DNA of 40,090 nt from a virus: positions 1 to 40,090 of the IMG/VR virus record IMGVR_UViG_3300048890_000052; one strand, given 5' to 3'. Below, one piece after another: positions 4,153 to 37,732 of this stretch; position 1 is the stretch's first letter; each line of letters opens with the position of its first letter. The position numbers were made by a program, and so were the translations under genes. The notes below the pieces were generated by a model that worked only from the letters and a program-made list of their open reading frames with translations, had not been told where the DNA came from and made no database searches.

Positions 4153-6576
4153 TCATTGGAGCGTCTCCCCGAACATGGCTTCTGGGCTGGGGGCGTGGTC
4201 CGGTGCCGTCTCACCGGGTGCCCAGTAATATTCCGTGCGCTGGTCGCGGGCGCGCTTCTCCATGCGCCGCCACGACTGGCGATAATTGGGATCGATCTCT
4301 TCCTGGATCTGGTCCGTCACCAGCCGGTCGAAGGCGAGCTTGGCGTACCAGAGCGACCCGCCGGGCAGTTCCTGCCGCGCCAGCTTTGTCGCCGCCCAGG
4401 CGGGATGCTTTGATTTTACGATATCGGCGAGCGACTGCACGTCCTGCGCGACCGGGCCTGCCATCGTCTCGGCAATGCCGCCGCCGAAACGGTTCTGGGT
4501 CGACTGCAGGAAATCGCCGAAAATGCCGAAGCCGCCGCCCTGCAGCACCGCCGCGCCCCAGAAATCCTTATCGTCCATCGGCCGTGGGTCTTTACCGCCG
4601 GCGAGCGCCTTCAGCTGCATGGCCAGGCCACCCATCAACGTCGTGCCGATCACCAGTCCCGCGGCATAGCGCGCGGCATTGCCCGCCGATTGCTCCATGA
4701 CCCGGCGCCCCTGCTGGATCAGCATCGAGATCCCGAACGATTTGAACAACAGCGCCGAGCGCACGATCTCGCCCGCGATCGTGCCCTTGGGCGCGACCGA
4801 GTTGATCAGCGCCCGCGTGCGCAAATCCGCCACCGGCACCGCAAAATCGGTTTCCTGCAGGATCATCTCGAGCATCCGGTCACCGAGCGCCTGGTCCTCG
4901 ACATTGGCCGGCTTGATCCACGGCACGCCCCGGTCGACCTCGAGCGGCGTCGCGCGGATACTGTCCCAGCCGCCCGCGTCGATACCGTGCCGCGCCAGCG
5001 CCCCGCGAAACGCCGGATCGAGCTTGTCGAAGCCCTTGACGCTTTCGTCGGTGATATGGCCGAGAAATTCCATGCCGAATGCCCAGCGCCCCGCCTGCGT
5101 CCAGCGCGACAGGCCGGATGCGCGCAGCACGCCCTCGGCCAGGCGCCGCGAGATCTCGCCGGTCAGCTCCTCGTTGAGATAGCGGCCCTGGGCGGCCGCG
5201 CGCTGGCCCCATTCCTCGGCGATCAGGCCCAGCCGCACCGCCAGTTTCTGATCCTCTTTGGAGCCGGGGCGCAGCAACTTGGCATAGTCGCGGATCATCG
5301 AAGCGGCAGGCAGCCCGTTATATTTGCGGGTCGAGAACTGGAATGCCGTGTCCGTGACCGCCGACAGCGTCGCGCTGCCGAGCTTCGCTGCCGTCTGGAA
5401 ACTGCGCAGCGCCGAGAAGGCCAGTGCCAGCTTGCGGTTTTCAGGGCGGTTGGACGATCCCGTGATCTCGCCCCACAGCCGGTCGATCTGCTTGCCGCCG
5501 GCATGGGCGCGGTCGATCGCCTTGCTGTCAGGCGCGCTGTCGGTCGCGGCCGTCTTTTCGATCCAGTCCTTGATCCAGCCGACCGTGGCATTGGGATTGG
5601 GGCCGAGGATCTCCATCATCGCGGTTTCGCGGGACAGGCTATCGATATGCCCCATCATCGCGTCGAATGCGGTGCCCGATCCGAACTGCTGCTGATAGGC
5701 CGACCAGCTCGGCGCATCCTTGAACACCAGGAAGCGCGCATCGCCGTGGCGGCTCGCCATGATACCCTGTCCGGGCGAGCCCGCGGCGCGCTTCGACCAG
5801 CCCTCGCTGCGGATGCTTTCCCAGGTGTCGCGCAACGCCGCATCGAGATCCCGATCGGTGAAGGGCGCGCCGGTGTCACGATCGATCATCTGCGCGCGGT
5901 CGAGCAGCGGCACGATCGTGTCGCGCCACGCCTCGTAGCCGGCGCGCCGAACCTTGATGCTGTCATGCGCCTGCGGCAGGCCCCAGCGCTCGATCTTGCC
6001 GATATCGCCGCCGGCGGCGTTGAACCGCTTGCGCAGCATCTCGGCCGCCTCGCCCCAGGCACCGGCGAGCTCCTTGGCGGCGAGGTTGCCACTATCCTCT
6101 CCGAACGCTTCCTTGACGATATCGCCGAGCTGGGCGCGGTTGCGCAGCTGCCCGAACACATTGCGGCTATGATCGGCGAGGATCTGGTCGATCATCGCAT
6201 GGGCACGGCCCCGGATCGCCTTGCGCCGCCCCTCGACGTTAGAATAGGCCGCGCGGCCGTCGCGATCGAGCAGCGCCAGCGCGGCGCGCGGATCGATCGG
6301 GCCGTTCGCGCCCTTGCCGCCGTCAAAGCTGCCGAGCGAGGCGATCACGTCCTGCTGCGCCTTGACCTGCAACAGCATCCGGCGCTTTTTCAGGAGCACC
6401 TCATTCTCGAGGGCCTTGAGCACGGTTTGCGTCGCCAGCGCCTCGGCCGCCGCGCCGCCCATCTGGCGATCATAGACGTCGAGCAGCTGGCCATAGCGCT
6501 TGAGCGCCCACTCGCCCTTGCCCTTCGGGATCTTGCCCTGCTCGACCAGGTCGGGAATGCAAACGCCGGCGGCCAT
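4153..6576 (-). CDS. Internal virion (ejection) protein, 807 aa
   Basis: Position and size correspond to the T7 gp15/gp16 block. Gly-rich hydrophobic C-terminal segments (GLVIGTTLMGGLA, GGGFGIFGDF). Start preceded by cassette A. Confidence 0.65.
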   Translation of the reverse strand: MAAGVCIPDLVEQGKIPKGKGEWALKRYGQLLDVYDRQMGGAAAEALATQTVLKALENEVLLKKRRMLLQVKAQQDVIASLGSFDGGKGANGPIDPRAALALLDRDGRAAYSNVEGRRKAIRGRAHAMIDQILADHSRNVFGQLRNRAQLGDIVKEAFGEDSGNLAAKELAGAWGEAAEMLRKRFNAAGGDIGKIERWGLPQAHDSIKVRRAGYEAWRDTIVPLLDRAQMIDRDTGAPFTDRDLDAALRDTWESIRSEGWSKRAAGSPGQGIMASRHGDARFLVFKDAPSWSAYQQQFGSGTAFDAMMGHIDSLSRETAMMEILGPNPNATVGWIKDWIEKTAATDSAPDSKAIDRAHAGGKQIDRLWGEITGSSNRPENRKLALAFSALRSFQTAAKLGSATLSAVTDTAFQFSTRKYNGLPAASMIRDYAKLLRPGSKEDQKLAVRLGLIAEEWGQRAAAQGRYLNEELTGEISRRLAEGVLRASGLSRWTQAGRWAFGMEFLGHITDESVKGFDKLDPAFRGALARHGIDAGGWDSIRATPLEVDRGVPWIKPANVEDQALGDRMLEMILQETDFAVPVADLRTRALINSVAPKGTIAGEIVRSALLFKSFGISMLIQQGRRVMEQSAGNAARYAAGLVIGTTLMGGLAMQLKALAGGKDPRPMDDKDFWGAAVLQGGGFGIFGDFLQSTQNRFGGGIAETMAGPVAQDVQSLADIVKSKHPAWAATKLARQELPGGSLWYAKLAFDRLVTDQIQEEIDPNYRQSWRRMEKRARDQRTEYYWAPGETAPDHAPSPEAMFGETLQ

Positions 6577-20719: not shown

Positions 20720-22275
20720 CCTCCATTGAAACGAAACTCGTCATAATCGCCGTCGACCGTGGCGGCCGCGCCGCCGCCGCGCGGCTGCCCGCGAATGTCG
20801 GAAATCACATGCTCGCCCTCGAGCGCCGCATATTGCTCGGCGTCGGCGACATGGGTGTAGATCGTGTCGGCGATCTCGAGATTGCCGCGCAGCTCGCCCG
20901 TGCTCATTTCCTGTTTCTGGTAGCGATAGCCACCCGAATGAGCCTTGATCAGGTGCTTGCAGCCGGGGTCGACATAGTATCCGTCCTGCTTGCCCATCGC
21001 CTTCCAGATCGCCTCGTTGCGCAGCCCCGCAGCGTTGCTTTTCGCCTTGAAGATCTTGCCCATGCCGATCGCCGCCTGGACCGCCAACACCCAGTCGCGG
21101 CCATCATTCGGCCGATCCTCGGCGGCGAAGGCGGCGGGATCACAGACCAATTTGACCTGGTCGCGCTGGATCCCCGGAAAGCGCTCGAGCAGCGCCTGTT
21201 TCACCCGCCGGCCGAACCCTTCCGCGCTGATCTTGACCAGCGCCTTGCCGCCGGTGGCCAGGCTCACCACCTCGCCGAGCGTACGAATATCGCCCTGGGC
21301 GTCGCGCTGCAGGAAGACGGCGGCGGCGCTGTAGCCCTGGTCGATGCCGACGATCAACTTGCGCCGCTTGTCCCAGCGCTCCTCGCGAACGTGGCGGGTA
21401 TAGACGAATTCATCATTGACCGGCTGCCCGTGCATCAGCGGCACCGGCTTGTTGTGTACCATGCGGTCGACATAGTTTTTCTTGTGCCGGTTCGCCGCGA
21501 TCTGCAGCACGTAATAGCCCCGGCCATTGTGCAGATTATGGAGGTTTTCCGCGTCCGGCTCCATCCCGCCGGGCTGCACGAACGTCTCGATCAGCTCGCG
21601 CCCGCCGAGCGCTTCCTTGAGCTGGCCCGTGTCCGCGTCCGAGAGCTCGCCGAGCTGCTTGTCGAATGCGAGCTGGTAGGCATGATTGTCGATATCCGGC
21701 ATGTTCATCGACACGATGATCTGCGGATCGACGACATTGCTCGGGTCGAGATCGGAGAAACGCCCGACGCGGCCCGTCAGGAATGGCACCAGGTCGGCGG
21801 GCTGCAGATCCGCCTCATCGATCATCACCGCGTTGATTTCCCAGCCGCGGCAGGCTTCCTCGACCGTCTGCTGGCCGATGCCCCGGAACTCATATTCCAT
21901 CTCGAGGATCTCGGTCGGCTTGCCAGTCTCCGGATCGCGCTTCAGCACCTTGGCGAACTGGTGCGTGTAGGGCGGCGACCAGTTGAAGCCCTTGTCCTCG
22001 GGCACGATGTTGAACCAGCTCTTGAGCGTCGTCGACTTGAGCGACGGATAGCTTTCGCGGATGACGCCGATGCGGGCCTTGCGCCGCCAGATCCCGCGCG
22101 CATCCTGCACCCGGCCTTGTTTCGCGCCGACCATGAGCCCCGTTTGCAACGCCGCCATCGTCTTGCCCGACCCCACCGGCCCGATAATGACCTTGATGAA
22201 CGCCCGCGACCGCAGAAACGCATCCGCCACCGGCCCCGGCGAGCGCAACAGGCGAGGCTTGGCGGGCGCGTTCAT
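20716..22275 (-). CDS. terL: Terminase large subunit
   Basis: Walker A IIGPVGSGKT, Walker B AVMIDEAD, C-terminal nuclease-sized domain. Preceded by a coupled small-subunit gene. Confidence 0.9.
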   Translation of the reverse strand: MNAPAKPRLLRSPGPVADAFLRSRAFIKVIIGPVGSGKTMAALQTGLMVGAKQGRVQDARGIWRRKARIGVIRESYPSLKSTTLKSWFNIVPEDKGFNWSPPYTHQFAKVLKRDPETGKPTEILEMEYEFRGIGQQTVEEACRGWEINAVMIDEADLQPADLVPFLTGRVGRFSDLDPSNVVDPQIIVSMNMPDIDNHAYQLAFDKQLGELSDADTGQLKEALGGRELIETFVQPGGMEPDAENLHNLHNGRGYYVLQIAANRHKKNYVDRMVHNKPVPLMHGQPVNDEFVYTRHVREERWDKRRKLIVGIDQGYSAAAVFLQRDAQGDIRTLGEVVSLATGGKALVKISAEGFGRRVKQALLERFPGIQRDQVKLVCDPAAFAAEDRPNDGRDWVLAVQAAIGMGKIFKAKSNAAGLRNEAIWKAMGKQDGYYVDPGCKHLIKAHSGGYRYQKQEMSTGELRGNLEIADTIYTHVADAEQYAALEGEHVISDIRGQPRGGGAAATVDGDYDEFRFNGG

Positions 22276-22943
22276 GCGGCCTCCTCCTCATCATCGACCG
22301 AAGTGAAATCCGCATCGAGCACGTCCTGGACCTCGGCATCGCTGTGCGTGACGCCGGCGATAATGAGATCCGAGAGCCCCGAAAAATTCATGTCGACCGC
22401 CACCGGCCGCTTGCTCTCGATGTAGGGCAGCAACCCCTCGGCGCAGCGGATCCTGAGCGACTGCGCCGCCTCATAGGTGAGCGTCTCCTCGACCACCTCG
22501 ACGACCTTGTCGGCGCGATCCTTGCCGCCCTTCAGGATCTTCATCACCGTGCGGCGGCTGTTCTCGATCAGGACTTCGGGCGCCGTGCTCTGGATCTGCA
22601 TCATCGTGATCGCCGGATGCTGGCCGTACTGGCCCAGATACCGCGCGAAATCATCCGTCCGCTTGTTGCGCGATCCCTTGGGCCGGCCACGCTTCACCTC
22701 GCGCGCCTGGCGCAGCACCGACAGCCGCCCGGCATGGGGCCCCAGCCGTTCGCGGGCTTCGACCATGTCCTCGGGCGTGACGTCCTCGAGCAGGTCGAGC
22801 TGCTCTTCCTCGCGCTGCGCCGTCTCGACAAGCGCCTTGGCGCCGTCCAGCGCGTCGGTGATAACCTTGTCCTGGCCGGTCTTAGTTGACATGGACCCGG
22901 ACCCCGCTAGTCTCGCCCGATCGACACAGCCCCCAACCGGCAT
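22272..22943 (-). CDS. terS: Terminase small subunit candidate (223 aa; alternative start 22892)
   Basis: ATGA-coupled directly to terL. Contains a basic KRGRPKGSRNKR DNA-binding-like stretch. ATG 22943 is preceded by CTGGGGGTCTG, the same SD context as cassettes A and B. Confidence 0.6.
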   Translation of the reverse strand: MPVGGCVDRARLAGSGSMSTKTGQDKVITDALDGAKALVETAQREEEQLDLLEDVTPEDMVEARERLGPHAGRLSVLRQAREVKRGRPKGSRNKRTDDFARYLGQYGQHPAITMMQIQSTAPEVLIENSRRTVMKILKGGKDRADKVVEVVEETLTYEAAQSLRIRCAEGLLPYIESKRPVAVDMNFSGLSDLIIAGVTHSDAEVQDVLDADFTSVDDEEEAA

Positions 22944-23246
22944 CAGACCCCCAGCCCCGAGCTCGCATGCGAGCGGAGCGGGAAAGCCGCTCCCCCGACC
23001 CCGTCTGCAGCCTCAAAATTCCGGGCGCCTCCGCACCCTTGGCTGGACAGTCATCGTTGATGGCGATCCAAATTGGGAAAATCGCGTGCGCCAAGGGGCG
23101 GGGGAAGGGGCGCGGCGCGGATGGGGGCCCGCCCCCCCCTGCCGGCCGATCGATGCCCCCCATGCCCTGCCCAGGCCGACCGGTCAGCCCGCATAGCTGA
23201 CGCCGCGCTGCAAGAAATGGCTGTTTCCTGCGGCTCTCAGAGGATC

Positions 23247-23268
23247 GTTCCAACGAGACTGTTCCAAC
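23247..23268 (+). repeat. Two direct GTTCCAAC motifs (same motif as the attP arms)
   Basis: GTTCCAAC at 23247-23254 and 23261-23268. The same 8-mer or its complement occurs five more times at 38221-38414. Confidence 0.6.
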
Positions 23269-23539
23269 GGCCACCCGCGACCCATGCGAAACCCGCACAA
23301 ATCCGCCATTCCCGCTGCACCAGGCCGAGCCGATCTCGATCGACCTCGAGCAACTGCCCAGGCCGAACCCCTGCGACCCGCCGCGCCCCCGAAGCCCGAA
23401 AGTTTTGGCACCGCGCCCCTCTGCTCGCCCCCTCATCGGGCATGATCGAGCCTGCGGATCGGCATCGCGCCAATATCCGCCGCCTATTTTATTCGGAAAC
23501 GGCGGATTTCTACGGCTTTGCGACCGGTGCGCCATGGAC

Positions 23540-23785
23540 GGTTGCAGCTGCAACCGACTTGCAACCGTTCTGCAACCACTAACCTCTTGATTTACATAAG
23601 ATATCTGATGCGGTTGCAAGGTTGCAAAGATTAGCCTCGCGCTATGCGCATGCGTGTAGGCGTACACGCGCATGTGCGCATGACGCGAGGCTCCAAGCTG
23701 CAACCGTGCAACCACTGCGATAAGCTGTTGATTTGGAAGGGTTTCCCGGTTGCAAAACGGTTGCAAGTCGGTTGCAGCTGCAACC
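23540..23785. repeat. Dyad-symmetric iteron array (12 x GGTTGCA(A/G)), candidate replication origin or protein-binding hub
   Basis: Octamers at 23540, 23548, 23559, 23570, 23612, 23620, 23698, 23706, 23748, 23759, 23770 and 23778. The 16-bp perfect palindrome GGTTGCAGCTGCAACC occurs twice. The symmetry centre at 23662/23663 carries a nested hairpin. Confidence 0.75.
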
Positions 23786-24050
23786 ACTCCCCCGGACCCG
23801 GATCGCACCAGACATTGGCGATCCATCTTTCCTGCCATCAAACGGGCCGGGGTGCAACGACAAGCGACAAGGCCGCACCACACCAACGGGCCAGGGTATT
23901 TATCCGCACCGAGGGAGGAGGATGCAGAGCACCCGCGCACCGCGTCCCTACGGGCCGCTGCGGGTGCGATTTTCGCTCTTGACATGGCGCTTTTCTGCGG
24001 GGCTGCGACCGCGAAAATCTTTTTCTCAAGAGGGATTGACATGTGCGTAA

Positions 24051-24245
24051 TCATTTCTTTTCACCATCCCCCATCGCGTCGAAGAGGGCGGCGATGAGCG
24101 CGTCAAAACCGGCGTTCACTGCACGAACAAGAAAGCTCTCATGTGGCAGCAAAAAGCTGCGCGCTTCTTCGGCCGCCGCATCTACAGCACCGCGCACCGA
24201 TGTCTCGACCTTGGCCCGAAGCATCTCCTGCTCCTCGCGCGTCAT
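24051..24245 (-). CDS. Hypothetical protein (64 aa), last gene of the replication operon
   Basis: ATGA overlap with the helicase stop. Helical, acidic. Confidence 0.5.
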   Translation of the reverse strand: MTREEQEMLRAKVETSVRGAVDAAAEEARSFLLPHESFLVRAVNAGFDALIAALFDAMGDGEKK

Positions 24246-26128
24246 GCCTTCTCACCCTTCCACCGCGCCACCGCCGGTATCTCGCTCTCATCGATCACCA
24301 GGTCGAGCGGCACCAGCGTCGCGCGCATCGCGATCCGCCCGAACTTCACCGTCACGCCCTCGAGCGCGCCCTCGCTCCGCCCCAGCGCCTGCGCCCACAC
24401 GCCGCCCGCCCATTTCTTGCCCGCGAAGATCCCGGCAATGGCCTGGTGCGAATTGGCGACGGCCAGAAAGCCCGGCCTGCCCGGCACCCAGATTGCCGAG
24501 CCCGTCCCGGTCGGCGTCACGATCTTGAGACCCAGCTCCTGCAGCCGGCGATGATGCTTGCCCTCGCCGCCCGAGGGATCGCATATTTCCTGCACGGCCG
24601 AGCCGATCCAGGTGCCGATGCTCTCGCGCTCATCGCCGCCGCGCGCCTGCACCATCGTCGTGCGCAGGTGCGTCAGGCACAGCTCATGCTCCTCGGCGCT
24701 GTCCGCGACCTCGCGCAGGAACTTCACGTCGCACAGCGCGGCTGCAGCCTCGATCGTCGCCAGATCCGGCAACCGATCGTAAAGCAGCAGGTCCGCACAG
24801 GCGAGCAGCGTGCCGAACTGGTCGCACGCGCGCGCCGTGTGGCCCATGTCGGCCAGCGCCTCCTGATAGGCGGCATAGGTCTCGCCCCAGCGCTCCCACC
24901 CGTCGACCATGCGCCTGAGCAGCTTGCGGCCGAGCTCGCCCAGCCGCGCCGCCTTGAAATCCGGTTTCTTCGCCGCCTTGTCGAAGGGCTTGAGCGCACA
25001 CACCGCCCAGCGGCTGCGGTCTTGCGGCTCCATCGGCGGGATCAGGATCGAGCTCGCCCAGAAGCTCGACTGCAGCGTGAAGTCCATCGCCTGGTGATCC
25101 TGCCCACCGCGCCCCGCATCGTCGCCGCTGGAGCTCACCCGTGCCAGCTCAAGGATCGCCTTGGTACGCCGGCCATCCTCCTCCGCCTCGAGCTCGTCGA
25201 GGAACACCGGCACCGTCGAATTGCGCAGCCGCTGGCGGATATAGGCCGCGCTCGCATCGGCGCTGCGCAGCCGGCCATTGCCGAAGATCTGGTCGAGCAT
25301 GCCATGCTTGCCATTGAGCGTCGACTTGCCGGTGCCGCGCCCGCCCGTGATCCAGACGCTCGGCCGCCATTCCAGCGCGCCGCCCAGGAAGGCCGCGCCG
25401 ATCCCGCCCAGCACCAGCAGCGGATCCAGGAGCGGCCGCTTCCAGTTCCAGCTCGCCAGCAGCGACCGCGTGATCTCGCCTGCCCGTTCGCCCACCGGCT
25501 CGGGCCAGGGGCGCGGGATCGGCGCGGCGGCGGGATAGACGAAATCGCCGTGCAGGCCGGTATCGAACCACTCGATCTCGGCCGCCTCGCCATTGATGCG
25601 CAGCCGCCGCCGCATGATCATGTTGCCGCAATGCAGGACCAGGGCGTCATTGCCGCTCCGGTGCGCACCGGCGCCACGGATCCGCCCTGTCGGATCGAAT
25701 ATCCCGCGGCGCGTGCATTCGACGATCAGCGCGTCGGACGCCGCAGCCTGGTCGAACCCCTTCAGCACCGAGGGCTTGAGGATATCGCCGGTTTTCCTGT
25801 CCGTCTTTTCCTCGGTCCACTGGCCGAAATGGCGCTCGAGCCAGCTCTTTTTCGTACCAAATAGGCCAATCAGGCTGTTCTTGCCGTGACGGTTGCCCAT
25901 CTCGAGCTTGATGATCTGGCCGTTGATGTCGAGGTAGAAGCATTGCTGCTCAAGCACCCCGAGCGGCTGGATCGGGCAGTCCGGCGGCAAGGGCGGTGCG
26001 TCGAGATCATCGCCATCATCATGCCCGCCGAACGGGCGCAGATCGCCCGCCTCGGCCAGCACCGGCGCATCCTCGGCCGCATCGATCGCGGCCCCTATGT
26101 CGACGATATTGCCCCCCCGGCTAGCCAT
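24242..26128 (-). CDS. P-loop NTPase, probable SF3-type replicative helicase (628 aa)
   Basis: Walker A ITGGRGTGKST, Walker B PVFLDELE. Start MASRGGN at 26128 overlaps the upstream stop. Sits in the same operon as the Toprim protein, as in P4-alpha-like split systems. Confidence 0.75.
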   Translation of the reverse strand: MASRGGNIVDIGAAIDAAEDAPVLAEAGDLRPFGGHDDGDDLDAPPLPPDCPIQPLGVLEQQCFYLDINGQIIKLEMGNRHGKNSLIGLFGTKKSWLERHFGQWTEEKTDRKTGDILKPSVLKGFDQAAASDALIVECTRRGIFDPTGRIRGAGAHRSGNDALVLHCGNMIMRRRLRINGEAAEIEWFDTGLHGDFVYPAAAPIPRPWPEPVGERAGEITRSLLASWNWKRPLLDPLLVLGGIGAAFLGGALEWRPSVWITGGRGTGKSTLNGKHGMLDQIFGNGRLRSADASAAYIRQRLRNSTVPVFLDELEAEEDGRRTKAILELARVSSSGDDAGRGGQDHQAMDFTLQSSFWASSILIPPMEPQDRSRWAVCALKPFDKAAKKPDFKAARLGELGRKLLRRMVDGWERWGETYAAYQEALADMGHTARACDQFGTLLACADLLLYDRLPDLATIEAAAALCDVKFLREVADSAEEHELCLTHLRTTMVQARGGDERESIGTWIGSAVQEICDPSGGEGKHHRRLQELGLKIVTPTGTGSAIWVPGRPGFLAVANSHQAIAGIFAGKKWAGGVWAQALGRSEGALEGVTVKFGRIAMRATLVPLDLVIDESEIPAVARWKGEKA

Positions 26129-26454
26129 CAGTGCCCGCCCCTCACGCCGAGAAACGCCTGCCAATCGCGATCGCCGATCACGCCGCGCTCTTTCCATGCA
26201 ATCCTAAAATTCGGCATAGCCTTGCCACGCGCCATCAGCGCGATGCGCACCCGCTGGCGGCTCTCAGGCAGCAGGAAATTCGCGACATCCAGTTCGCTAT
26301 GATGATCCTCACACAACGGCAGATCGACAATCATCCGCAGCGGCTGGCTACGCTTGCCACCCAGGGCGGGCACGCAAATCACCGCGTAGTAAATTCCGAG
26401 CCGTTCGCATCCGTCGCGCGAACATCCCCCAACGGTGCCCGATTGGCTCGCCAT
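26128..26454 (-). CDS. Hypothetical Cys/His-containing protein (108 aa)
   Basis: Start and stop are both ATGA-coupled. GGCSRDGCERLG..VICVP..LCEDHH suggests metal binding. Confidence 0.5.
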   Translation of the reverse strand: MASQSGTVGGCSRDGCERLGIYYAVICVPALGGKRSQPLRMIVDLPLCEDHHSELDVANFLLPESRQRVRIALMARGKAMPNFRIAWKERGVIGDRDWQAFLGVRGGH

Positions 26455-26777: not shown

Positions 26778-26935
26778 CAGTCTAGCCCCCGATGCGCTGG
26801 ACAGAGAGCGGCCCATGCCCCCCCCCTGCCGAAAGCACGATTGGCAAAGATCACTTCCCATCCGCTGGGCGCCGCCTCCGGCAGCGTCCCGATCGCCTTC
26901 GCGGCGCACTTCCGGCATCGAACCAACTCTCTCAC
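26777..26935 (-). CDS. Small zinc-ribbon-like protein (52 aa, GTG start)
   Basis: GTG overlaps the primase TGA (GTGA). RELVRCRKCAAKAIG..WAALCPAH gives a CxxC...CxxH pattern. Its stop overlaps the next ATG. Confidence 0.4.
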   Translation of the reverse strand: MRELVRCRKCAAKAIGTLPEAAPSGWEVIFANRAFGRGGAWAALCPAHRGLD

Positions 26936-28041
26936 GCCGCCCTCTCCCCACCAGCCCGCGCACCGCGCTGCAGCCATAAATTGAGATCCTTCACCCCCAC
27001 AGGCGGCATCACATATTGGACGTGCATGCCGCGCGCCTGCTGCCGCGCAATCACCCGCTCGAGCAGGTCGGTGGCCTTGCTGCCCGCCTCATCGCGGTCG
27101 CACAGCAGCACCAGGCGCCGGACGTGCTCGGGAAAGACGATCGACCCGATATTGCCCAGCGAGTACCCGGCATCGATGCGGATCTCGGGCTTGGCCATCG
27201 CGGCGGTCAGGCAATCCTCGATCCCCTCGGCCATATGCTCGACCTCGCCTTCCGGCATCTGCGACATGGACTTGCCCGAGGGGCCGTGCCGCAATGGGAT
27301 GAACGACCCCGCGCAGGCGCCCAGCACCATCTTGGCATTGGGACTGTCCAGCTTCACCCAGCCCTTGCGCTCGCACCAGCGCAAATAGGTGCGATGGCTC
27401 GCCACATGCACGCCCGCCGGCGTCACCATCTGGGCGATCATCGCCGGGATCTTGAGCCCCTGCTCGCGGTTCCACACTTCGGCATGGAATTTCAGCGAAC
27501 CCGGCCATTTGCCCAGCCGCGCCACATCGATGCCACGCCCGCGCAGATAGGCTTCCGCCGGCGTCCCAGCGATCGGCTTGGCCCCCATCCACAGCGCCAC
27601 CGCGCGCTTGCGCTTGACCTCCTTCAGCTCGGCCGCCTTGATCACATCGGCCTCGGCCGATGCACGCGCCTCGCGCTTCTTCGTCTCGAGCCGATCGGCA
27701 TCGAGCCCGTCCAGGCCCAGCCAGCTCTTGGCCCATTTGATCGCGTCGACCAGCTCGCCCCGGAACAATATCTTGGCGATCAGCAGCAGGCAGTCGCCGC
27801 CGCCATCGTCGCTGCCCAGCGCCGCGAAATCCGCCCACATGCCGCGATTGGGCCCGTCGACATTGATCTTGAGACTCTGCCCCGGCTCGCCGGACAGCGA
27901 CCCCACGCACAGATAATGCCCGTCCCGCTTCGCATTGGGCAGCAGCTGCCACACCAGCGCCTCGACCTGGGCGCGCAGCAGCTGCTCGATCTCGCGCACC
28001 TCGATCGCGAATTGCGGTCTATCCCGGGCCGGGGCGTTCAT
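26932..28041 (-). CDS. Toprim-domain primase-like protein (369 aa)
   Basis: HMAEGIEDCLTAAMA (Toprim Glu) and LVLLCDRDEAGSKA (DxD). Architecture resembles alphaproteobacterial prophage primase-like proteins. No zinc finger in the protein itself. Confidence 0.8.
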   Translation of the reverse strand: MNAPARDRPQFAIEVREIEQLLRAQVEALVWQLLPNAKRDGHYLCVGSLSGEPGQSLKINVDGPNRGMWADFAALGSDDGGGDCLLLIAKILFRGELVDAIKWAKSWLGLDGLDADRLETKKREARASAEADVIKAAELKEVKRKRAVALWMGAKPIAGTPAEAYLRGRGIDVARLGKWPGSLKFHAEVWNREQGLKIPAMIAQMVTPAGVHVASHRTYLRWCERKGWVKLDSPNAKMVLGACAGSFIPLRHGPSGKSMSQMPEGEVEHMAEGIEDCLTAAMAKPEIRIDAGYSLGNIGSIVFPEHVRRLVLLCDRDEAGSKATDLLERVIARQQARGMHVQYVMPPVGVKDLNLWLQRGARAGGERAA

Positions 28042-28492: not shown

Positions 28493-28753
28493 GTGGACTT
28501 GATCGATATCGAAATGCGCCTGATCGTGCTGGAAACGATGGTGGCGGACCTGACCGCCCGGCGCTTCGCCGACGAGGCGGCCATGCGCCGCTGGACGGAA
28601 GAAAACGACGCGCAGCTCACCGCGCACGAGGAACGGTCGAAGCACAAGCCAGAGGTCATCGCACGTCACCGCGCGGTATGGGACGCAATGCTCGCAACAG
28701 TGCGCGCACGGTTTCAGCACTTGAACAGGCCGCCAGCCAGGGATCCCGGCTGA
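28493..28753 (+). CDS. Hypothetical helical protein (86 aa)
   Basis: GTG start 10 nt after a strong AAGGAGGG. High GC3. Divergent from the replication operon. Confidence 0.55.
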   Translation: MDLIDIEMRLIVLETMVADLTARRFADEAAMRRWTEENDAQLTAHEERSKHKPEVIARHRAVWDAMLATVRARFQHLNRPPARDPG

Positions 28754-28897
28754 CACCGCCTTGCTCAGCGGCGATCAGCATCACCCGATCGAGCGCCGCC
28801 TCGTGGCTTTGGGAGGGAAAGGCGTCGCCCATCACGCGGCTTTCTCGAATTCAGGCGCGCCGTGATATGGACTAACGACTCGAGGGGGGAATATCGA

Positions 28898-29290
28898 ATG
28901 CGGAAAACATGGGTAATACTTGGCCTGGTGCTGGCAGGTTGCTCGAAAAGTGACAATGCTGCGGACAATAACGGTTACCCGCCGACTGACGCCGTCACGA
29001 CAGCACCAGTAAAAAAGGCGGTTACCGCATGGAGCGACTGCCTCATCTATGGGATCAAGCAAGTCGACAATACGAAGGAACCGGCCGTCACGATCGCGGA
29101 GGCCGCAATGGCGGGATGCACGCGCGCTGAGACGAACCTGGAAGATCGACTGTTTGACGCCATGAAGAAGAGCGGTAATCCACTTGAGGTGCGCGCCATC
29201 GCCGCTGACATGGTGGATGGCTTTCGCACCCGCATGAGATCGCAAACTATCCGATGGGTCTTGTCGAAACATGCGGAGGAGCGTCACTGA
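28898..29290 (+). CDS. Lipoprotein (130 aa), moron-like
   Basis: MRKTWVILGLVLAGCSKSD is a signal peptide with lipobox LAGC. RBS GGGGGGA. Visibly lower GC than its surroundings. Oriented against the flanking phage operon. Confidence 0.7.
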   Translation: MRKTWVILGLVLAGCSKSDNAADNNGYPPTDAVTTAPVKKAVTAWSDCLIYGIKQVDNTKEPAVTIAEAAMAGCTRAETNLEDRLFDAMKKSGNPLEVRAIAADMVDGFRTRMRSQTIRWVLSKHAEERH

Positions 29291-29292
29291 CA

Positions 29293-29535
29293 TCACGCCG
29301 CCACCTGCCGGTGCGACTGCCCGGACGCCCATTCAGGAAGATCGTAAAAATCATTCGGGCTCGCGATCCCTTCGCGGTGGAGTTCGATCAGATAGGCAGC
29401 GCCGGGAACCTCGGTTCCGTTCTCCCAACGCCACCATTGCTGCCGCGTTGCACCGACGATATTGGCTGCGGCCGCCTGGGTCAGGCGGTGTTCGCGCCGC
29501 CATGCCTGCATTTTGGAGTGAGACTGTTTCGCCAT
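29293..29535 (-). CDS. XRE-family HTH regulator (80 aa), Cro-like candidate
   Basis: HRLTQAAAANIVGATRQQWWRWENG is an HTH_3-type motif. Divergent from the second HTH gene across a 71-bp operator region. No SD upstream of the ATG. Confidence 0.8.
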   Translation of the reverse strand: MAKQSHSKMQAWRREHRLTQAAAANIVGATRQQWWRWENGTEVPGAAYLIELHREGIASPNDFYDLPEWASGQSHRQVAA

Positions 29536-29546
29536 GGGACAGTCTG

Positions 29547-29563
29547 GTAACGCCTAACGTTAC
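29547..29563. promoter_or_regulatory. Operator O1, perfect GTAACG-N5-CGTTAC
   Basis: GTAACGCCTAACGTTAC, located between the divergent HTH genes. Confidence 0.65.
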
Positions 29564-29579
29564 AACTTGACAACCCCAT

Positions 29580-29596
29580 GTAACGTATGGCGTATC
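29580..29596. promoter_or_regulatory. Operator O2, imperfect (GTAACG-TATGG-CGTATC)
   Basis: Starts 33 bp after the O1 start. There are two mismatches in the right half-site. Confidence 0.5.
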
Positions 29597-29606
29597 TTTT
29601 TTGCTT

Positions 29607-29978
29607 ATGCAGAATGTCGTACCTTTCATTGCGATGGACGAGTTTCCAAATCGCATCAATGAGCTACGGCGCATGGCTGGCCTGACGCAGGAAGCGTTGG
29701 CCAACCTGCTCGGCACGTCCAAAATGAACGTATCCCGTTACGAGACCGGCAAGCAGGATCTCACCATTGACTGGATGCGACGTTTTGCCGAAGCCTTGGG
29801 CTGCGAGCCGGCGGAAATTCTCAGCGACCAGGACAACCCGATGCGACTGCGCCCGACCGAACGGCAGCTGATCACCCGCTTCCGCTCAGGATCCCCCGAC
29901 CGTCAGGACGATCTGCGCCGGGTTGCTGAAACCCTCATCCCCTACACCCCTCAACCGCGCGATCGCAGCGCCGCTTGA
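29607..29978 (+). CDS. XRE-family HTH regulator (123 aa from ATG 29607; TTG 29601 possible), CI-like candidate without peptidase domain
   Basis: LRRMAGLTQEALANLLGTSKMNVSRYETGKQDLT is an HTH_3-type motif. No S24-like C-terminal domain. No SD upstream. Confidence 0.8.
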   Translation: MQNVVPFIAMDEFPNRINELRRMAGLTQEALANLLGTSKMNVSRYETGKQDLTIDWMRRFAEALGCEPAEILSDQDNPMRLRPTERQLITRFRSGSPDRQDDLRRVAETLIPYTPQPRDRSAA

Positions 29979-30347
29979 TCACGGCCACGCGCGCGCCAAA
30001 CCCGCGCGCATCTGCGCCGCGCCCAGATCGCGGCCCTCAACCGCGCACCGCACGATCGGGCGCCCATATCGATCATCCGGCGCCACCCGGGCACAATCGA
30101 TCGGTCCCCGCGCCGCCAGCGAACGGATATGGTTACGAGACTTGAAACCAAGCGGGAAATCGCACCAACTGTGTCGGCCTGGACGGCGGCACTTTGGGCT
30201 GCCGGGTAGTTCCGGCGCGTCGATCGCTGCTAGCCGCATTGTTCGGCCGCCACAGCGGATATCGTCGCCATCATGAAAATAGGGCGCATCGCAGCGGAAG
30301 CTGCCGCCCGATACCGCCAGCGCGAGCGAGAGTGAGAAAATGAACAT
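29979..30347 (-). CDS. Secreted thermonuclease (SNase)-like nuclease (122 aa)
   Basis: Signal peptide MFIFSLSLALAVSGG. HDGDDIRCGGRTMRLAAIDAPE matches the SNase DGDT..RLxGIDAPE motif. The later DRYGRPIV..GLARAW is also SNase-like. Confidence 0.8.
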   Translation of the reverse strand: MFIFSLSLALAVSGGSFRCDAPYFHDGDDIRCGGRTMRLAAIDAPELPGSPKCRRPGRHSWCDFPLGFKSRNHIRSLAARGPIDCARVAPDDRYGRPIVRCAVEGRDLGAAQMRAGLARAWP

Positions 30348-30484
30348 GCCAGCACCCTAACACGAGCGCGGATGCATCCTGCCTAAAACCGCGCCGAAAC
30401 GGCTTGAAATTTGTAAGCTGCAAACCGAGAGATGCCCAGGCACACTCGGTTCGTCGCATTTTTGTTCGCTATCCGTTCCGATAT

Positions 30485-30501
30485 GTAACGGTAGGTGATA
30501 C
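30485..30501. promoter_or_regulatory. Operator O3, imperfect (GTAACG-GTAGG-TGATAC)
   Basis: Same left half-site and N5 spacing as O1. Starts 33 bp before the O4 start. Confidence 0.45.
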
Positions 30502-30509
30502 TTTTTAGC

Positions 30510-30537
30510 TTGACCTTGTAACGTATACCGTTACTTC
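30510..30537 (+). promoter_or_regulatory. Rightward early promoter candidate
   Basis: TTGACC (30510-30515), a 16-nt spacer, then TACTTC (30532-30537). Operator O4 lies in the spacer and the -10 element. Confidence 0.4.
30518..30534. promoter_or_regulatory. Operator O4, perfect GTAACG-N5-CGTTAC
   Basis: GTAACGTATACCGTTAC, overlapping the candidate rightward promoter. Confidence 0.65.
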
Positions 30538-30540
30538 TGT

Positions 30541-30560
30541 CCTCCGTTAACCCACGGAGG
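30541..30560 (+). promoter_or_regulatory. Hairpin pairing the Shine-Dalgarno of the first rightward gene
   Basis: CCTCCG-TTAACCCA-CGGAGG. The GGAGG of the 3' arm is the SD, and ATG 30566 follows it after a 5-nt spacer. Confidence 0.4.
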
Positions 30561-30565
30561 GCATC

Positions 30566-30973
30566 ATGCACCTTGTCCACACTACCCCACCGCCCAGCGC
30601 CCCGGTCGCCTGCATTGCCGAGGCCCGCGCCGCGCGCCACGCCGTGCAGGACCGGGCCGAACCGACCTGGCCGATGCACACCATCGCCCGCAAGCTCGGC
30701 GTCAACCACCGCAGCGCGCGCTGGCAGCGCGACTACATCACCGCCCTGATCGTCAACGAGGGCTTTCCCCAGCCGCTGCCGACCCTGGTCAGCGGCGCGA
30801 TCAGCCGCGAGATCTCGCCGGCGAAATCGCGCTGGATCCCCGCCGCGGTCGCCGCCTGGCTCGGCGGCACACTACCCCCCGGCACCCTCGCCGCGCTCGA
30901 CAGCGCCGACGCCCGCGACGCCGCCGACCGCCTCGACGCCCGCGCCGACGCCCTGTTCGGAGGCGCGGCATGA
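30566..30973 (+). CDS. Hypothetical early protein (135 aa)
   Basis: Good RBS. First gene after the operator-controlled promoter. MHTIARKLGVNHRSARWQRDYI may be helix-turn-helix-like. Confidence 0.6.
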   Translation: MHLVHTTPPPSAPVACIAEARAARHAVQDRAEPTWPMHTIARKLGVNHRSARWQRDYITALIVNEGFPQPLPTLVSGAISREISPAKSRWIPAAVAAWLGGTLPPGTLAALDSADARDAADRLDARADALFGGAA

Positions 30974-32253: not shown

Positions 32254-32551
32254 TGTGGGCGGGCAAACAGCTGCCGGCGACGGCTACGGCTCCGGCTCCG
32301 GCTACGGCGACGGCTCCGGCTCCGGCTACGGCTCCGGCTACGGCGACGGCTCCGGCTACGGCGACGGCTCCGGCTACGGCGACGGCTCCGGCTACGGCGA
32401 CGGCTCCGGCTACGGCTCCGGCGACGGCGACGGCTCCGGCTACGGCTCCGGCTCCGGCTACGGCTACGGCTACGGCGACGGCGACGGCTCCGGCTCCGGC
32501 TACGGCGACGGCTCCGGCTCCGGCGACGGCTCCGGCTACGGCTCCGGCTGA
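32240..32551 (+). CDS. (Gly-X)n low-complexity repeat protein, X = Asp/Tyr/Ser (103 aa from ATG 32240; GTG 32255 possible)
   Basis: This frame gives GDGYGSGSGYGDGSGSGYG.. and ends at TGA 32549-32551 directly after the repeat. The same frame continues into the DUF4326-like ORF. Confidence 0.4.
   Translation: MRAVDVGGQTAAGDGYGSGSGYGDGSGSGYGSGYGDGSGYGDGSGYGDGSGYGDGSGYGSGDGDGSGYGSGSGYGYGYGDGDGSGSGYGDGSGSGDGSGYGSG
32276..32548. repeat. Hexanucleotide tandem repeat (GGC-GAC / GGC-TAC / GGC-TCC), about 45 units
   Basis: Uninterrupted 273 nt of GGCNNC units. It is open in all three plus-strand frames and in at least one minus-strand frame (ORF 32189-32680). Confidence 0.9.
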
Positions 32552-36451: not shown

Positions 36452-37732
36452 ATGGCAAAGATCGACATTCCCGGCCTGGTCATCAAGACCCGCGGCGCCC
36501 GCGTCTACCATTATTGGCAGCCGTCGGCCGCGCTGCGCAAGGCGGGCTGGACGGCCCTCACCCTCGGATCCGACCTGCGCACCGCCATGAAGCTGGCCGA
36601 GGCGCAGAACGACAAGGTCGAGGAGTGGCGCAGCGGCGGCGCCAAGCCCCGCCAGGTCAGGAAGTTCATCGCCGGCGGCACCGTCGACCAGCTGATCGCC
36701 CGCTTCAAGGCGCTGCGCTATCCCACGATCAAGCCCAGCACCGAAAAAACCTACAACTGGGCCCTGGGCGCGATCAGCAAATGGGCCGGGCCGGAGAAGG
36801 TCGCCCACATCGATCGCAACCGGGTACGCAAGCTGCGCGACGTGCTGCTGAAACCCGACAGCTTGACCGGCATCGTCAGCCTCAACCGCGCCAACGGCAT
36901 CATGCGCGTGCTTTCCACGCTGATGAAATTCGCGATCGACGAAGGCTTTTTGCAGCAGGACGCCCGCAACCCGGCCTCCGATCACAATGTCCCGTCGGCG
37001 GATCCACGCCATCAGGTCTGGTCGCCCGCCGCCGTCGACCTGATCGTCGCGGCCGCGCTCGAGGCGGGCCAGCCCGGGCTGGCGCTCGCCATCCTGCTCG
37101 CCCGCGAATGCGCGCAGCGCGAGGGCGACCTCATCAAGTTCCCGATCAGCAAATGGGCCGCCATTCCCCGCCACAAGCTCGAGGCCGACGACTGGGAGCG
37201 CATGGCCGAGCCCGGCCCGGACGGCACCCGCGACGTGCGCGGCGTGCGCCTGCGCCAGGGCAAGACCAATCGCTGGATCGAGGTGCCGATCGTCGGCGAC
37301 ACCCGCCGCCTGATCGAGGACGCGATCGCCGAGGCGCGCCAGGACGGCACCACCGTCCTGCTGCAGGAGCGCCGCCAGGACGCCCAGGGCGAGGCCGTGC
37401 GCGTGCCGTGGACCGGAACACGCCTGCAACGCGCCATCGCCGCCCTGCGGCCACTGGCGGCCGCCAGCGCGCGCGAAAATGGCGATGAGGATCTCGCGGC
37501 CGAGATCGAGGATCTGCAATTCCGCGACCTGCGGCGCACCGCCGTCGTCTGGCTGGGAGAGCTCGGCATCGAGGACCACCTGATCGCCGCGATCACCGGC
37601 CACAATCTTGACCAGACCAAGCAGATCCTCGAGACCTACATGCCCCGCAATACCAAGATGGCCGGCAAGGCGATCGCGCTCCGCCTCGAGCGCGACCGGA
37701 CGACGCCGGCGACGAAGGAGAAGCAGGCGTGA
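36452..37732 (+). CDS. int: Tyrosine integrase (426 aa)
   Basis: C-terminal catalytic signature FRDLRRTAV (Arg), AITGH (His), ILETYMP (Tyr). N-terminal SAM-like region. Adjacent to a tRNA-derived attP candidate. Confidence 0.9.
   Translation: MAKIDIPGLVIKTRGARVYHYWQPSAALRKAGWTALTLGSDLRTAMKLAEAQNDKVEEWRSGGAKPRQVRKFIAGGTVDQLIARFKALRYPTIKPSTEKTYNWALGAISKWAGPEKVAHIDRNRVRKLRDVLLKPDSLTGIVSLNRANGIMRVLSTLMKFAIDEGFLQQDARNPASDHNVPSADPRHQVWSPAAVDLIVAAALEAGQPGLALAILLARECAQREGDLIKFPISKWAAIPRHKLEADDWERMAEPGPDGTRDVRGVRLRQGKTNRWIEVPIVGDTRRLIEDAIAEARQDGTTVLLQERRQDAQGEAVRVPWTGTRLQRAIAALRPLAAASARENGDEDLAAEIEDLQFRDLRRTAVVWLGELGIEDHLIAAITGHNLDQTKQILETYMPRNTKMAGKAIALRLERDRTTPATKEKQA

Follow-up and report, generated by a model that had tools for sequence, protein, structure and literature searches.

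The subject of this analysis is a repeat array in the IMG/VR virus record IMGVR_UViG_3300048890_000052 (40,090 bp, 66% G+C), which was analysed over its whole length and is called the window here; all positions are given in whole-window numbering. Judged by the G+C content at third codon positions (GC3), every real gene between ~28.4 kb and 0.3 kb is encoded on the minus strand, in the order Toprim primase, helicase, a ~1.3-kb gap containing the array, putative small terminase (terS), large terminase (terL) and T7-type portal. The primase (26932..28041, minus), a Toprim_3/DUF7146 protein of 369 amino acids and the partner of the helicase, matches PHROG primase families. The proposed initiator is a 628-residue superfamily 3 (SF3) helicase (24242..26128, minus), a ‘DUF927’ protein of the D5/P4-alpha/Rep-like type, Rep being the protein of Staphylococcus aureus pathogenicity islands (SaPI). 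Its longest open reading frame (ORF) starts at 26197 and encodes 651 residues, and residue numbers below refer to this 651-residue ORF (minus 23 for the 628-residue protein). The array begins 456 bp from the helicase stop codon. A preliminary description had placed it downstream of the primase and helicase genes, which is correct provided that ‘downstream’ is read, like the flanking genes, on the minus strand. On the other side of the array, the putative terS (22272..22892, minus; 206 amino acids) starts at ATGTCAACT, a start confirmed by the source's own gene call. It was identified as a small terminase by position only, as no Pfam match was found for 17 homologues scanned and no PHROG match for the window protein; the homologue alignment contains an invariant AT-hook-like motif, RGRPxGxRN(K/R)(R/T).

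The array (23540..23785, no strand) consists of twelve heptamer iterons, GGTTGCA (GGTTGCAR as octamers), in the order 4+2/2+4, with the two halves flanking a GC-rich imperfect palindrome. All 12 exact GGTTGCA heptamers of the window, counting both strands, fall inside it, against a window-wide chance expectation of 4.2 (standard deviation 1.8), and 0 of 100 shuffles reached 12; the octamer array of the preliminary description is thus real and beyond chance. A search of the whole 40 kb for GGTTGCAR with up to one mismatch gave scattered background matches and no second cluster. The outer arm that is terS-proximal in gene orientation (23540..23577) has sites at 23540(+), 23549(-), 23560(-) and 23571(-) in 11-bp phasing, the first two of which make the palindrome GGTTGCAGCTGCAACC. 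It is followed by an AT-rich spacer (23578..23611, minus) with ATCAAGAGGTTA (23580-23591, minus), which resembles the consensus of integration host factor (IHF), WATCARNNNNTTR. This is the most AT-rich and best-conserved spacer in the array, and its AT-rich patch (23584-23610) is off-centre with respect to the dyad. An inner iteron pair follows (23612..23626, plus; sites 23612 and 23620, 8 bp apart), then the central GC-rich, purine/pyrimidine-alternating imperfect palindrome (23630..23695, no strand), and then the mirror-image inner pair (23699..23713, minus; sites 23699 and 23707, 8 bp apart). In the central stem AGCCTCGCG (23633-41) pairs with CGCGAGGCT (23684-92), and nested inside it GCGTGTA (23652-58) pairs with TACACGC (23663-69). 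The second spacer (23714..23747, minus) has an IHF-like ATCAACAGCTTA (23721-23732, minus), and the helicase-proximal outer arm (23748..23785) has sites at 23748, 23759, 23770(+) and 23779(-). The IHF-like motifs of both spacers share one orientation, so that the spacers break the dyad.

The preliminary description had placed the sites, the 11-bp and 8-bp phasing, the symmetry centre (23662/23663), the nested central stems and the AT-rich patch correctly. The outer arms, given there as 37 bp, are near-perfect over 38 nt with one mismatch, and of the two palindromes that it put at the centre one, ATGCGCAT at 23644-51, is perfect, while the other copy is GTGCGCAT and imperfect. In a repeat search the outer arms extended over 49 nt at 88% complementarity and the inner arms over 39 nt at 77%. 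Folding of the inner 116 nt gave a hairpin of -42.9 kcal/mol (z = -7.1). A scan of the palindrome against Rfam returned only meaningless miRNA-hairpin matches, and a scan of the array region for sigma-70 promoters and terminators gave nothing convincing. The large palindrome with its purine/pyrimidine core also suggested a protelomerase (telomere-resolution) site. This was rejected, as the sole tyrosine recombinase is an ordinary 426-residue integrase (36452-37732) and the palindrome is imperfect and variable.

Relatives were collected by way of the helicase (2 IMG/VR loci, 24 genome loci and 37 metagenome loci), to which one deposited phage record (MT835534.1) and 8 contigs for a blind test were added. 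The helicase homologues are ‘DUF927’-type proteins of Sphingobium, Novosphingobium, Sphingomonas and relatives, many of them on ~40-kb contigs, and the helicase half of phrog_35358 (‘DNA primase’) aligns to the window helicase. The DNA of the gap showed no similarity to deposited phages. The preliminary description had proposed a search for such arrays in related phages, and one was found in nearly every locus extending far enough. Of the first 26 relatives, 25 have the same ~240-bp 4+2/palindrome/2+4 layout between helicase and terS, as do ~55 syntenic loci overall, with the 11-bp and 8-bp phasing kept. The lack of a comparable array in syntenic relatives, which the preliminary description had named as a refuting outcome, is thus not what the relatives show. 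Read in gene orientation, the arrays of the relatives start with a GGGyCnGGGG box, one site facing three in 11-bp phase and a spacer with ATCAAnnnnTTG; the middle has two sites 8 bp apart, the GC-rich purine/pyrimidine palindrome (GCCTCGCGTGATGCGC ... GCGCATATACGCGAGG) and two more sites; the end has a strongly AT-rich spacer with ATCAnnnnGTTAG and three sites facing one. The heptamer itself varies among the relatives (GGTTGCA, GGTTCTG, GGTTCCA/G, GGTTACA, GGTTGTG, TGTTGCA and TGTTCT(G)), GGTTGCA being shared by the window and about 15 relatives, and the central palindrome is kept across these heptamer classes. That the architecture is kept while the word switches indicates that the architecture is under selection, and is the signature of binding sites co-evolving with a protein.

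Among the deposited sequences, MT835534.1 has the same layout (array at 5420-5700) with GGTTCT and the matching helicase residues described below. This record, an unannotated ‘Bacteriophage sp.’ from human faecal samples, is a member of this Sphingomonadales phage family; its host assignment or sample origin may merit re-examination. The exact 16-mer GGTTGCAGCTGCAACC also occurs in four IMG/VR contigs (L003-L006) that have no array, and these were set aside as chance matches. A paper on an ‘ancient Sphingomonadales prophage’ (PMC5381585) mentions no primase, helicase or terminase, and no link to the window element was found.

When whole-protein identity was compared with heptamer class, no protein family stood out, and a column-wise analysis alone was informative. 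Covariation with the heptamer was computed as corrected mutual information (MI) over ~650 helicase columns from 49 non-identical full-length proteins. The top helicase column is residue 616 for heptamer base 5 (corrected MI 0.77; runner-up 0.40), residue 625 for base 6 (0.84; runner-up 0.63) and residue 618 for base 1 (0.49; runner-up 0.41). All three fall within a single C-terminal beta-hairpin (residues 612-630; 24308..24364, minus), on both of its strands. In the window they are T616 (24350-52), K618 (24344-46) and R625 (24323-25), all minus and corresponding to 593, 595 and 602 in the 628-residue numbering. Control columns of primase, terS and terL reached maxima of only 0.28-0.54 for bases 5 and 6; the best terS columns gave 0.38-0.45 and the best terL columns 0.28-0.46, compared with 0.77-0.84 for the helicase.

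The associations can be written as a small residue-base code. Threonine or alanine at 616 goes with G at base 5, and lysine, arginine or aspartate with C; arginine at 625 goes with C at base 6 and threonine with T; arginine at 618 goes with T at base 1. For base 5, G occurs with T/A at 616 in 13/13 loci versus 0/33 others (Fisher 1e-11). For base 6, C occurs with R625 in 21 of 24 loci and T with T625 in 16 of 17, and for base 1, T occurs with R618 in all five loci (5/5), a correlation that has few independent events behind it. These pairings are chemically sensible, with arginine or lysine occurring at positions where a guanine is available on the complementary strand. A neighbour-joining tree restricted to the helicase core requires a minimum of six changes at base 5 and of five at base 6. 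The association is therefore not one inherited event but reflects repeated, independent co-switches. The window helicase and its 74%-identical relative with GGTTCT (L032) have C-terminal domains that differ mainly at 616 and 620-625.

The code was then used in a blind test, in which predictions were registered first and the new contigs were fetched afterwards. All six unambiguous predictions were correct (6/6), including two new combinations, TGTTGC and TGTTCT. With residues 616/618/625 being T, K, R, protein P0012 was predicted to go with GGTTGC and goes with GGTT(G/A)C; P0107 (A, K, R) was also predicted to go with GGTTGC and goes with (G/A)GTTGC. For P0023 (D, K, R) and P0076 (K, K, R) GGTTCC was predicted, and GGTTCC (12/12 sites) and GGTTCCCA, respectively, were observed. 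The new combinations were P0114 (T, R, R), predicted as TGTTGC and observed as TGTTGCA in 10/10 sites, and P0095 (K, R, T), predicted as TGTTCT and observed as such in 11/11. The deposited MT835534.1 (616 K, 625 T) carries GGTTCT and fits the code, and in P0051 a new residue at 616, arginine, goes with C at base 5, as lysine does. Taken together, the covariation would indirectly place the iteron specificity in the C-terminal domain of the helicase.

The AlphaFold (AF2) model of the helicase has a predicted local distance difference test score (pLDDT) of 74 and matches SF3 replicative helicases: the PrimPol of African swine fever virus, NrS-1, PriRep1 with double-stranded DNA, poxvirus D5/E5 and the SaPI5 primase-helicase. 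The C-terminal domain (residues 540-651; 24245..24580, minus), our proposed iteron-binding domain, is modelled with a pLDDT of 83 as two consecutive helices followed by a long beta-hairpin, a winged-helix-like topology. The specificity residues are located on this hairpin (the ‘wing’) and not on a recognition helix. The best Foldseek match of the domain had E = 0.25; matches to winged-helix structures (8tch, 5vfx, FOXA2) were non-significant at E = 2.8-5, and SaPIbov1 Rep was found at E = 2.8.

The SaPI origin (ori) directly follows rep and consists of 6-12 penta/hexamer iterons, split into two oppositely oriented sets that flank an AT-rich centre; the C-terminal winged helix of Rep binds these iterons, and the helicase C-terminal domain sets an ori specificity that differs between related elements (PMC9371898). 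P4 alpha likewise joins a DnaG-type primase, an SF3 helicase and a C-terminal winged helix (PMC2777425). Because the window combines an SF3 helicase, an adjacent primase and a predicted C-terminal reading of downstream iterons as in SaPI and P4, we read the array as an origin. More precisely, it would be the phage replication origin and helicase-loading site, at which the phage's own SF3 helicase would read the iterons through its C-terminal domain, and we give this reading a probability of roughly 0.72. The preliminary description had already offered a candidate origin bound by the adjacent primase/helicase pair, and the conserved architecture, the helicase covariation and the blind predictions now lend it support.

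A possible mechanism can be outlined for the window element, which in this explanation is a temperate, podovirus-like prophage of a Sphingomonadales host. The SF3 helicase, whose gene lies just upstream (minus), would recognise the twelve heptamers as iterons through its C-terminal domain, with the beta-hairpin reading at least heptamer bases 1, 5 and 6 by means of residues 618, 616 and 625. The six sites of each half-array (four outer at 11 bp, two inner at 8 bp) would correspond to the six C-terminal domains of one hexamer, and this match in number suggests two hexamers assembling head-to-head across the conserved GC-rich purine/pyrimidine palindrome. As each spacer has an IHF-like site, bending by a host protein may assist, and the strands would begin to separate in or beside the AT-rich spacer; it is plausible that bending and first melting both occur at the terS-proximal spacer, the sole strongly AT-rich segment. 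The adjacent Toprim primase would then prime synthesis. The analysis establishes the array, its conservation, the repeat switches, the residue-base covariation, the success of predictions made from it and the SF3 fold of the helicase model; physical binding, origin firing, the double-hexamer geometry, the involvement of IHF and the site of melting are inferred.

The closest comparison is with the pri-rep-ori modules of SaPI and other phage-inducible chromosomal islands. There, as here, a primase and a self-loading SF3 helicase are followed downstream by an iteron array of short repeats in two sets, and the window helicase model matches SaPI5 PriRep and PriRep1. The differences are also clear: the window has heptamers/octamers, not penta/hexamers, arranged in a strict 246-bp 4+2/2+4 dyad with two IHF-like spacers; its centre is a GC-rich purine/pyrimidine palindrome, whereas that of SaPI is AT-rich; its C-terminal domain is without detectable homology, as the SaPIbov1 Rep value given above illustrates; additional genes (morons) can separate helicase and array in the window's family; and the element is a complete phage of an alphaproteobacterium, not a satellite. 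The type I iterons of P4 are TGTTCACC, octamers present in both orientations. The window shares with P4 ori/alpha the bidirectional octamer iterons and the combination of Toprim-type primase, SF3 helicase and C-terminal DNA-binding domain (the last predicted here). It differs in that primase and helicase are separate genes, the 40-kb window has no crr-like second cis element, a dyad architecture is undescribed for P4, and neither the P4 origin-binding domain nor any other PDB chain matches the helicase in sequence. The parallel with P4 ori/crr drawn in the preliminary description thus holds at the functional level, and it fails for crr, of which no second cluster is the counterpart, and for the DNA-binding domain, where homology is undetectable. 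The origins of SV40/polyomavirus and papillomavirus have dyad short repeats around a palindrome and a one-sided AT-rich tract, and are bound by large T antigen or E1, SF3 helicases with an origin-binding domain that form a head-to-head double hexamer. These core origins are alike in outline and serve as an analogy only, as lineage and DNA-binding fold are unrelated and the window has 12 sites over 246 bp, compared with four pentamers in 64 bp. The array therefore fits best among the iteron origins of self-loading SF3 helicases, with an architecture that is new and a proposed binding domain for which no homologues are detectable.

Several observations weigh against this reading. Neither the helicase nor its C-terminal domain found a counterpart among PDB sequences (for the domain, nothing at E <= 10), and known origin-binding domains do not resemble the domain significantly in fold or sequence. 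SaPI origins are AT-rich at the centre, whereas the centre of the array (23630-23695) is GC-rich and its AT-rich patch lies to one side. The 6+6 count is neither universal nor rigid, since a sister clade has a rearranged array (++-++---+++) with 5+6/7 sites. The code is imperfect as well: besides the slender basis for base 1, proline at 616 is found together with any of A, C and G at base 5, and for protein P0031 (616 = P), flagged as ambiguous beforehand, the prediction failed (GGTTGC was observed), so that proline at 616 is uninformative. The GC skew is monotonic with no switch at the array, which is uninformative because the operon is co-directional. In all relatives the array is 520-650 bp from the terS start, whereas 190 to 3500 bp separate it from the helicase. 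Finally, the covariation shows co-evolution of helicase and heptamer and does not say what the binding does.

This last point leads to an alternative in which the helicase does bind the array, not for initiation but for titration, autoregulation or as a roadblock, for example coupling the level of replication proteins to late-gene read-through. It would account for the covariation, which shows co-evolution with the helicase only, and the array is surrounded by a frame kept open between helicase and terS (see below), so that its occupancy could gate read-through. We think it quite improbable, as the characterised SF3 primase-helicase replicons, P4 and SaPI, use such arrays as their origin (PMC9371898, PMC2777425) and the window has no alternative iteron cluster that could serve as one.

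The nearly constant distance to terS also brings in a packaging site (pac/cos), in which the small terminase would bind the heptamers flanking a central cleavage region with the help of IHF. Such a role would suit the location of the array, in all relatives, at a nearly fixed distance upstream of a small terminase gene identified by position, with extra genes being inserted on the helicase side, as well as the IHF-like sites in the spacers. The array also lies at the early/late module boundary, where cos is found in lambdoid prophages. The pac site of P1 has 4+3 hexamers flanking the region that is cut, an IHF site and neighbouring terminase genes; the window is similar in its short repeats flanking a centre, IHF-like sites and adjoining terminase genes, but its repeats co-vary with the helicase and not with terS or terL, and there is no Dam-type GATC logic. 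The same covariation decides against the packaging explanation in general: the terS and terL columns do not follow heptamer class while the helicase residues do, and the putative DNA-binding motif of terS, RGRPxGxRN, is the same in every heptamer class, in a protein whose identity is itself positional. The constant distance can be explained differently, because ~600 bp of conserved blocks fill the interval between array and terS. We therefore consider it unlikely that the array is the packaging site. Contig ends were of no use as a proxy for genome termini, as the relatives are prophages or contigs with ends elsewhere.

These terS-side conserved blocks (22992..23494, minus) are independent of heptamer class. 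They comprise a GAATATTCT..GGATAT block (GGATAT at 23473-78), AAACTTTCGGG (23395-405), GAATGGCGGA (23302-11), two copies of GTTGGAA 14 bp apart (23262-68 and 23248-54), a CAGCCTGTCAGGCTG-type hairpin (23185-99) and GGGTCGGGGG (22992-23001). The helicase side has conserved non-coding blocks of its own (23789..23967, no strand), namely CGGGTCCGGGG at 23790-23800 (minus), two inverted ACCCCGGCCCGTT boxes (23841-53 and 23885-97) and an inverted repeat, GCACCCGC/GCGGGTGC, at 23929-36 and 23960-67. CGGGyCnGGGG boxes in both orientations and AAAnTTTCGGG are also found among the flanking blocks. The inverted repeat shows compensatory changes in relatives, where its arms (23929-23936/23960-23967 in the window) read GCGGCCGC/GCGGCCGC, GCGCTCGC/GCGAGCGC or GCGAGCGC/GCGCTCGC, and these joint changes suggest a conserved hairpin or a symmetric protein site. 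Flanking blocks such as CGGGTCGGGG and GTTGGAA are possible candidates for pac/cos or late-expression signals and, being independent of heptamer class, are better candidates than the array for the pac/cos of a conserved terminase. The packaging alternative of the preliminary description is, in other words, weakened for the array itself and possible for the blocks beside it.

The interval between helicase and array is a hot spot for reverse-oriented cargo, including ArdC-like anti-restriction/metallopeptidase, DUF932 and ArdA genes; such cargo was seen in L011, L012, L015, L019, L026, L029, L073 and L074, and it makes up the additional DNA that lengthens this interval in relatives. Two relatives, L073 (350-988) and L076 (812-1459), encode ParA plus a ribbon-helix-helix (RHH) protein upstream of the immunity/replication module in place of a nearby integrase, whereas the window has an integrase. 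This replacement points to plasmid-like maintenance, for which an autonomous origin would be required, and to a phage-plasmid lifestyle within the same family. The same two loci could point to a regulatory or segregation role, the array being either a set of operators for a transcription factor of the late operon or a plasmid-type centromere bound by a partition protein; it is directly upstream of the structural operon, and phased repeats flanking a core recall parC-type centromeres. We regard this as very unlikely. Integrase relatives (the window included) and ParA relatives carry the array alike, among the conserved proteins only the helicase co-varies with the heptamers, neighbouring small ORFs lack conservation among relatives that all carry the array, a sigma-70-like promoter was not found in the region, and the covariation with the helicase would have to be a coincidence.

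The reading of the array as a helicase-bound origin provides a concrete origin and initiator candidate for a widespread, unstudied family of Sphingomonadales prophages and phage-plasmids, together with a rule for locating such origins from sequence alone. The natural specificity switches amount to a small recognition code, usable for mutually orthogonal replicons in high-GC alphaproteobacteria and for studying how related phages avoid cross-activation or hijacking of one another's origins. The 6+6 layout would also be a simple model for double-hexamer assembly by a bacterial SF3 self-loading helicase.

The preliminary description had called the surroundings of the array a gene-free region, which is not correct, as a 390-codon open frame (22882..24054, minus), here called ORFx, spans the array and is frame-conserved in relatives. 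Its stop codon overlaps the terS start, as ATGTCAACTAA in the window and GTGTCAACTGA in relatives, and in many loci an in-frame RTGTCAA is found 185-310 nt upstream of the array. Over a fixed 1.1-kb span, one sense frame is stop-free in 34 of 48 relatives, compared with a median of 6-9 stops in the other five frames, and the antisense frames are never stop-free. The distances between conserved DNA blocks take 22 and 17 different lengths, yet modulo 3 they are the same in 32/37 and 24/26 non-redundant loci (p about 1e-10). At the level of amino acids no such constraint was seen: the G+C content at codon positions 1/2/3 is 0.63/0.60/0.65, versus 0.68/0.49/0.87 for the helicase, substitutions between related pairs number 813/817/814 at the three positions, and the translation has no match in Pfam. 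A stop-free, phased frame without an amino-acid-level signature implies that the frame, and not a protein, appears to be selected.

The existence of ORFx nevertheless raises the question of whether the repeats could be a by-product of a coding gene for a repetitive protein. The frame runs through the whole array, most relatives keep it open and in phase, and it is annotated by some gene callers (as in L069 and L070) and skipped by others. A coding gene of this kind would, however, be at odds with the GC3 of 0.65, compared with 0.85-0.87 in the neighbouring genes, with the equal substitution counts at the three codon positions and with the lack of family matches. Moreover, coding repeats do not produce sites in both orientations or a DNA-level dyad symmetry. 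This symmetry, together with the missing coding signature, excludes such an origin of the repeats for practical purposes, and we give it hardly any weight.

More tentatively, ORFx could be a ‘spacer’ frame that houses the origin and whose sole selected property is ribosome read-through, with stops purged, indels in threes and amino acids drifting; we hold this to be possible, though rather doubtful. As a working idea, translation across the palindromic origin might then prevent termination in a long co-directional operon, couple terS initiation or modulate origin use. The origin of lambda, with iterons and an adjacent AT-rich segment, lies inside gene O, a translated frame of the early operon. 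The window array is similarly located within a frame kept open, but O is the initiator and evolves as a protein, whereas ORFx has no amino-acid-level constraint and the helicase is the proposed binder. If true, the spacer-frame proposal would establish a new kind of selected ‘non-protein ORF’, along with a naturally readable residue-to-base code of an origin-binding domain; if confirmed, it would bear on how phage operons cross large non-coding control regions and on how gene callers treat such frames.

Two further stretches of the window were noted. Upstream of the primase, between divergent small genes, 28493-30566 is a low-GC stretch (0.58-0.59) with few confident ORFs and no GGTTGCA sites, and is probably the immunity/lysogeny switch. 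At 32275-32549 there is a tandem repeat of ~46 copies of the 6-bp unit CGGCTA (18-bp super-unit, 88% matches), with no confidently called gene; one of its frames would give Gly-Tyr repeats.

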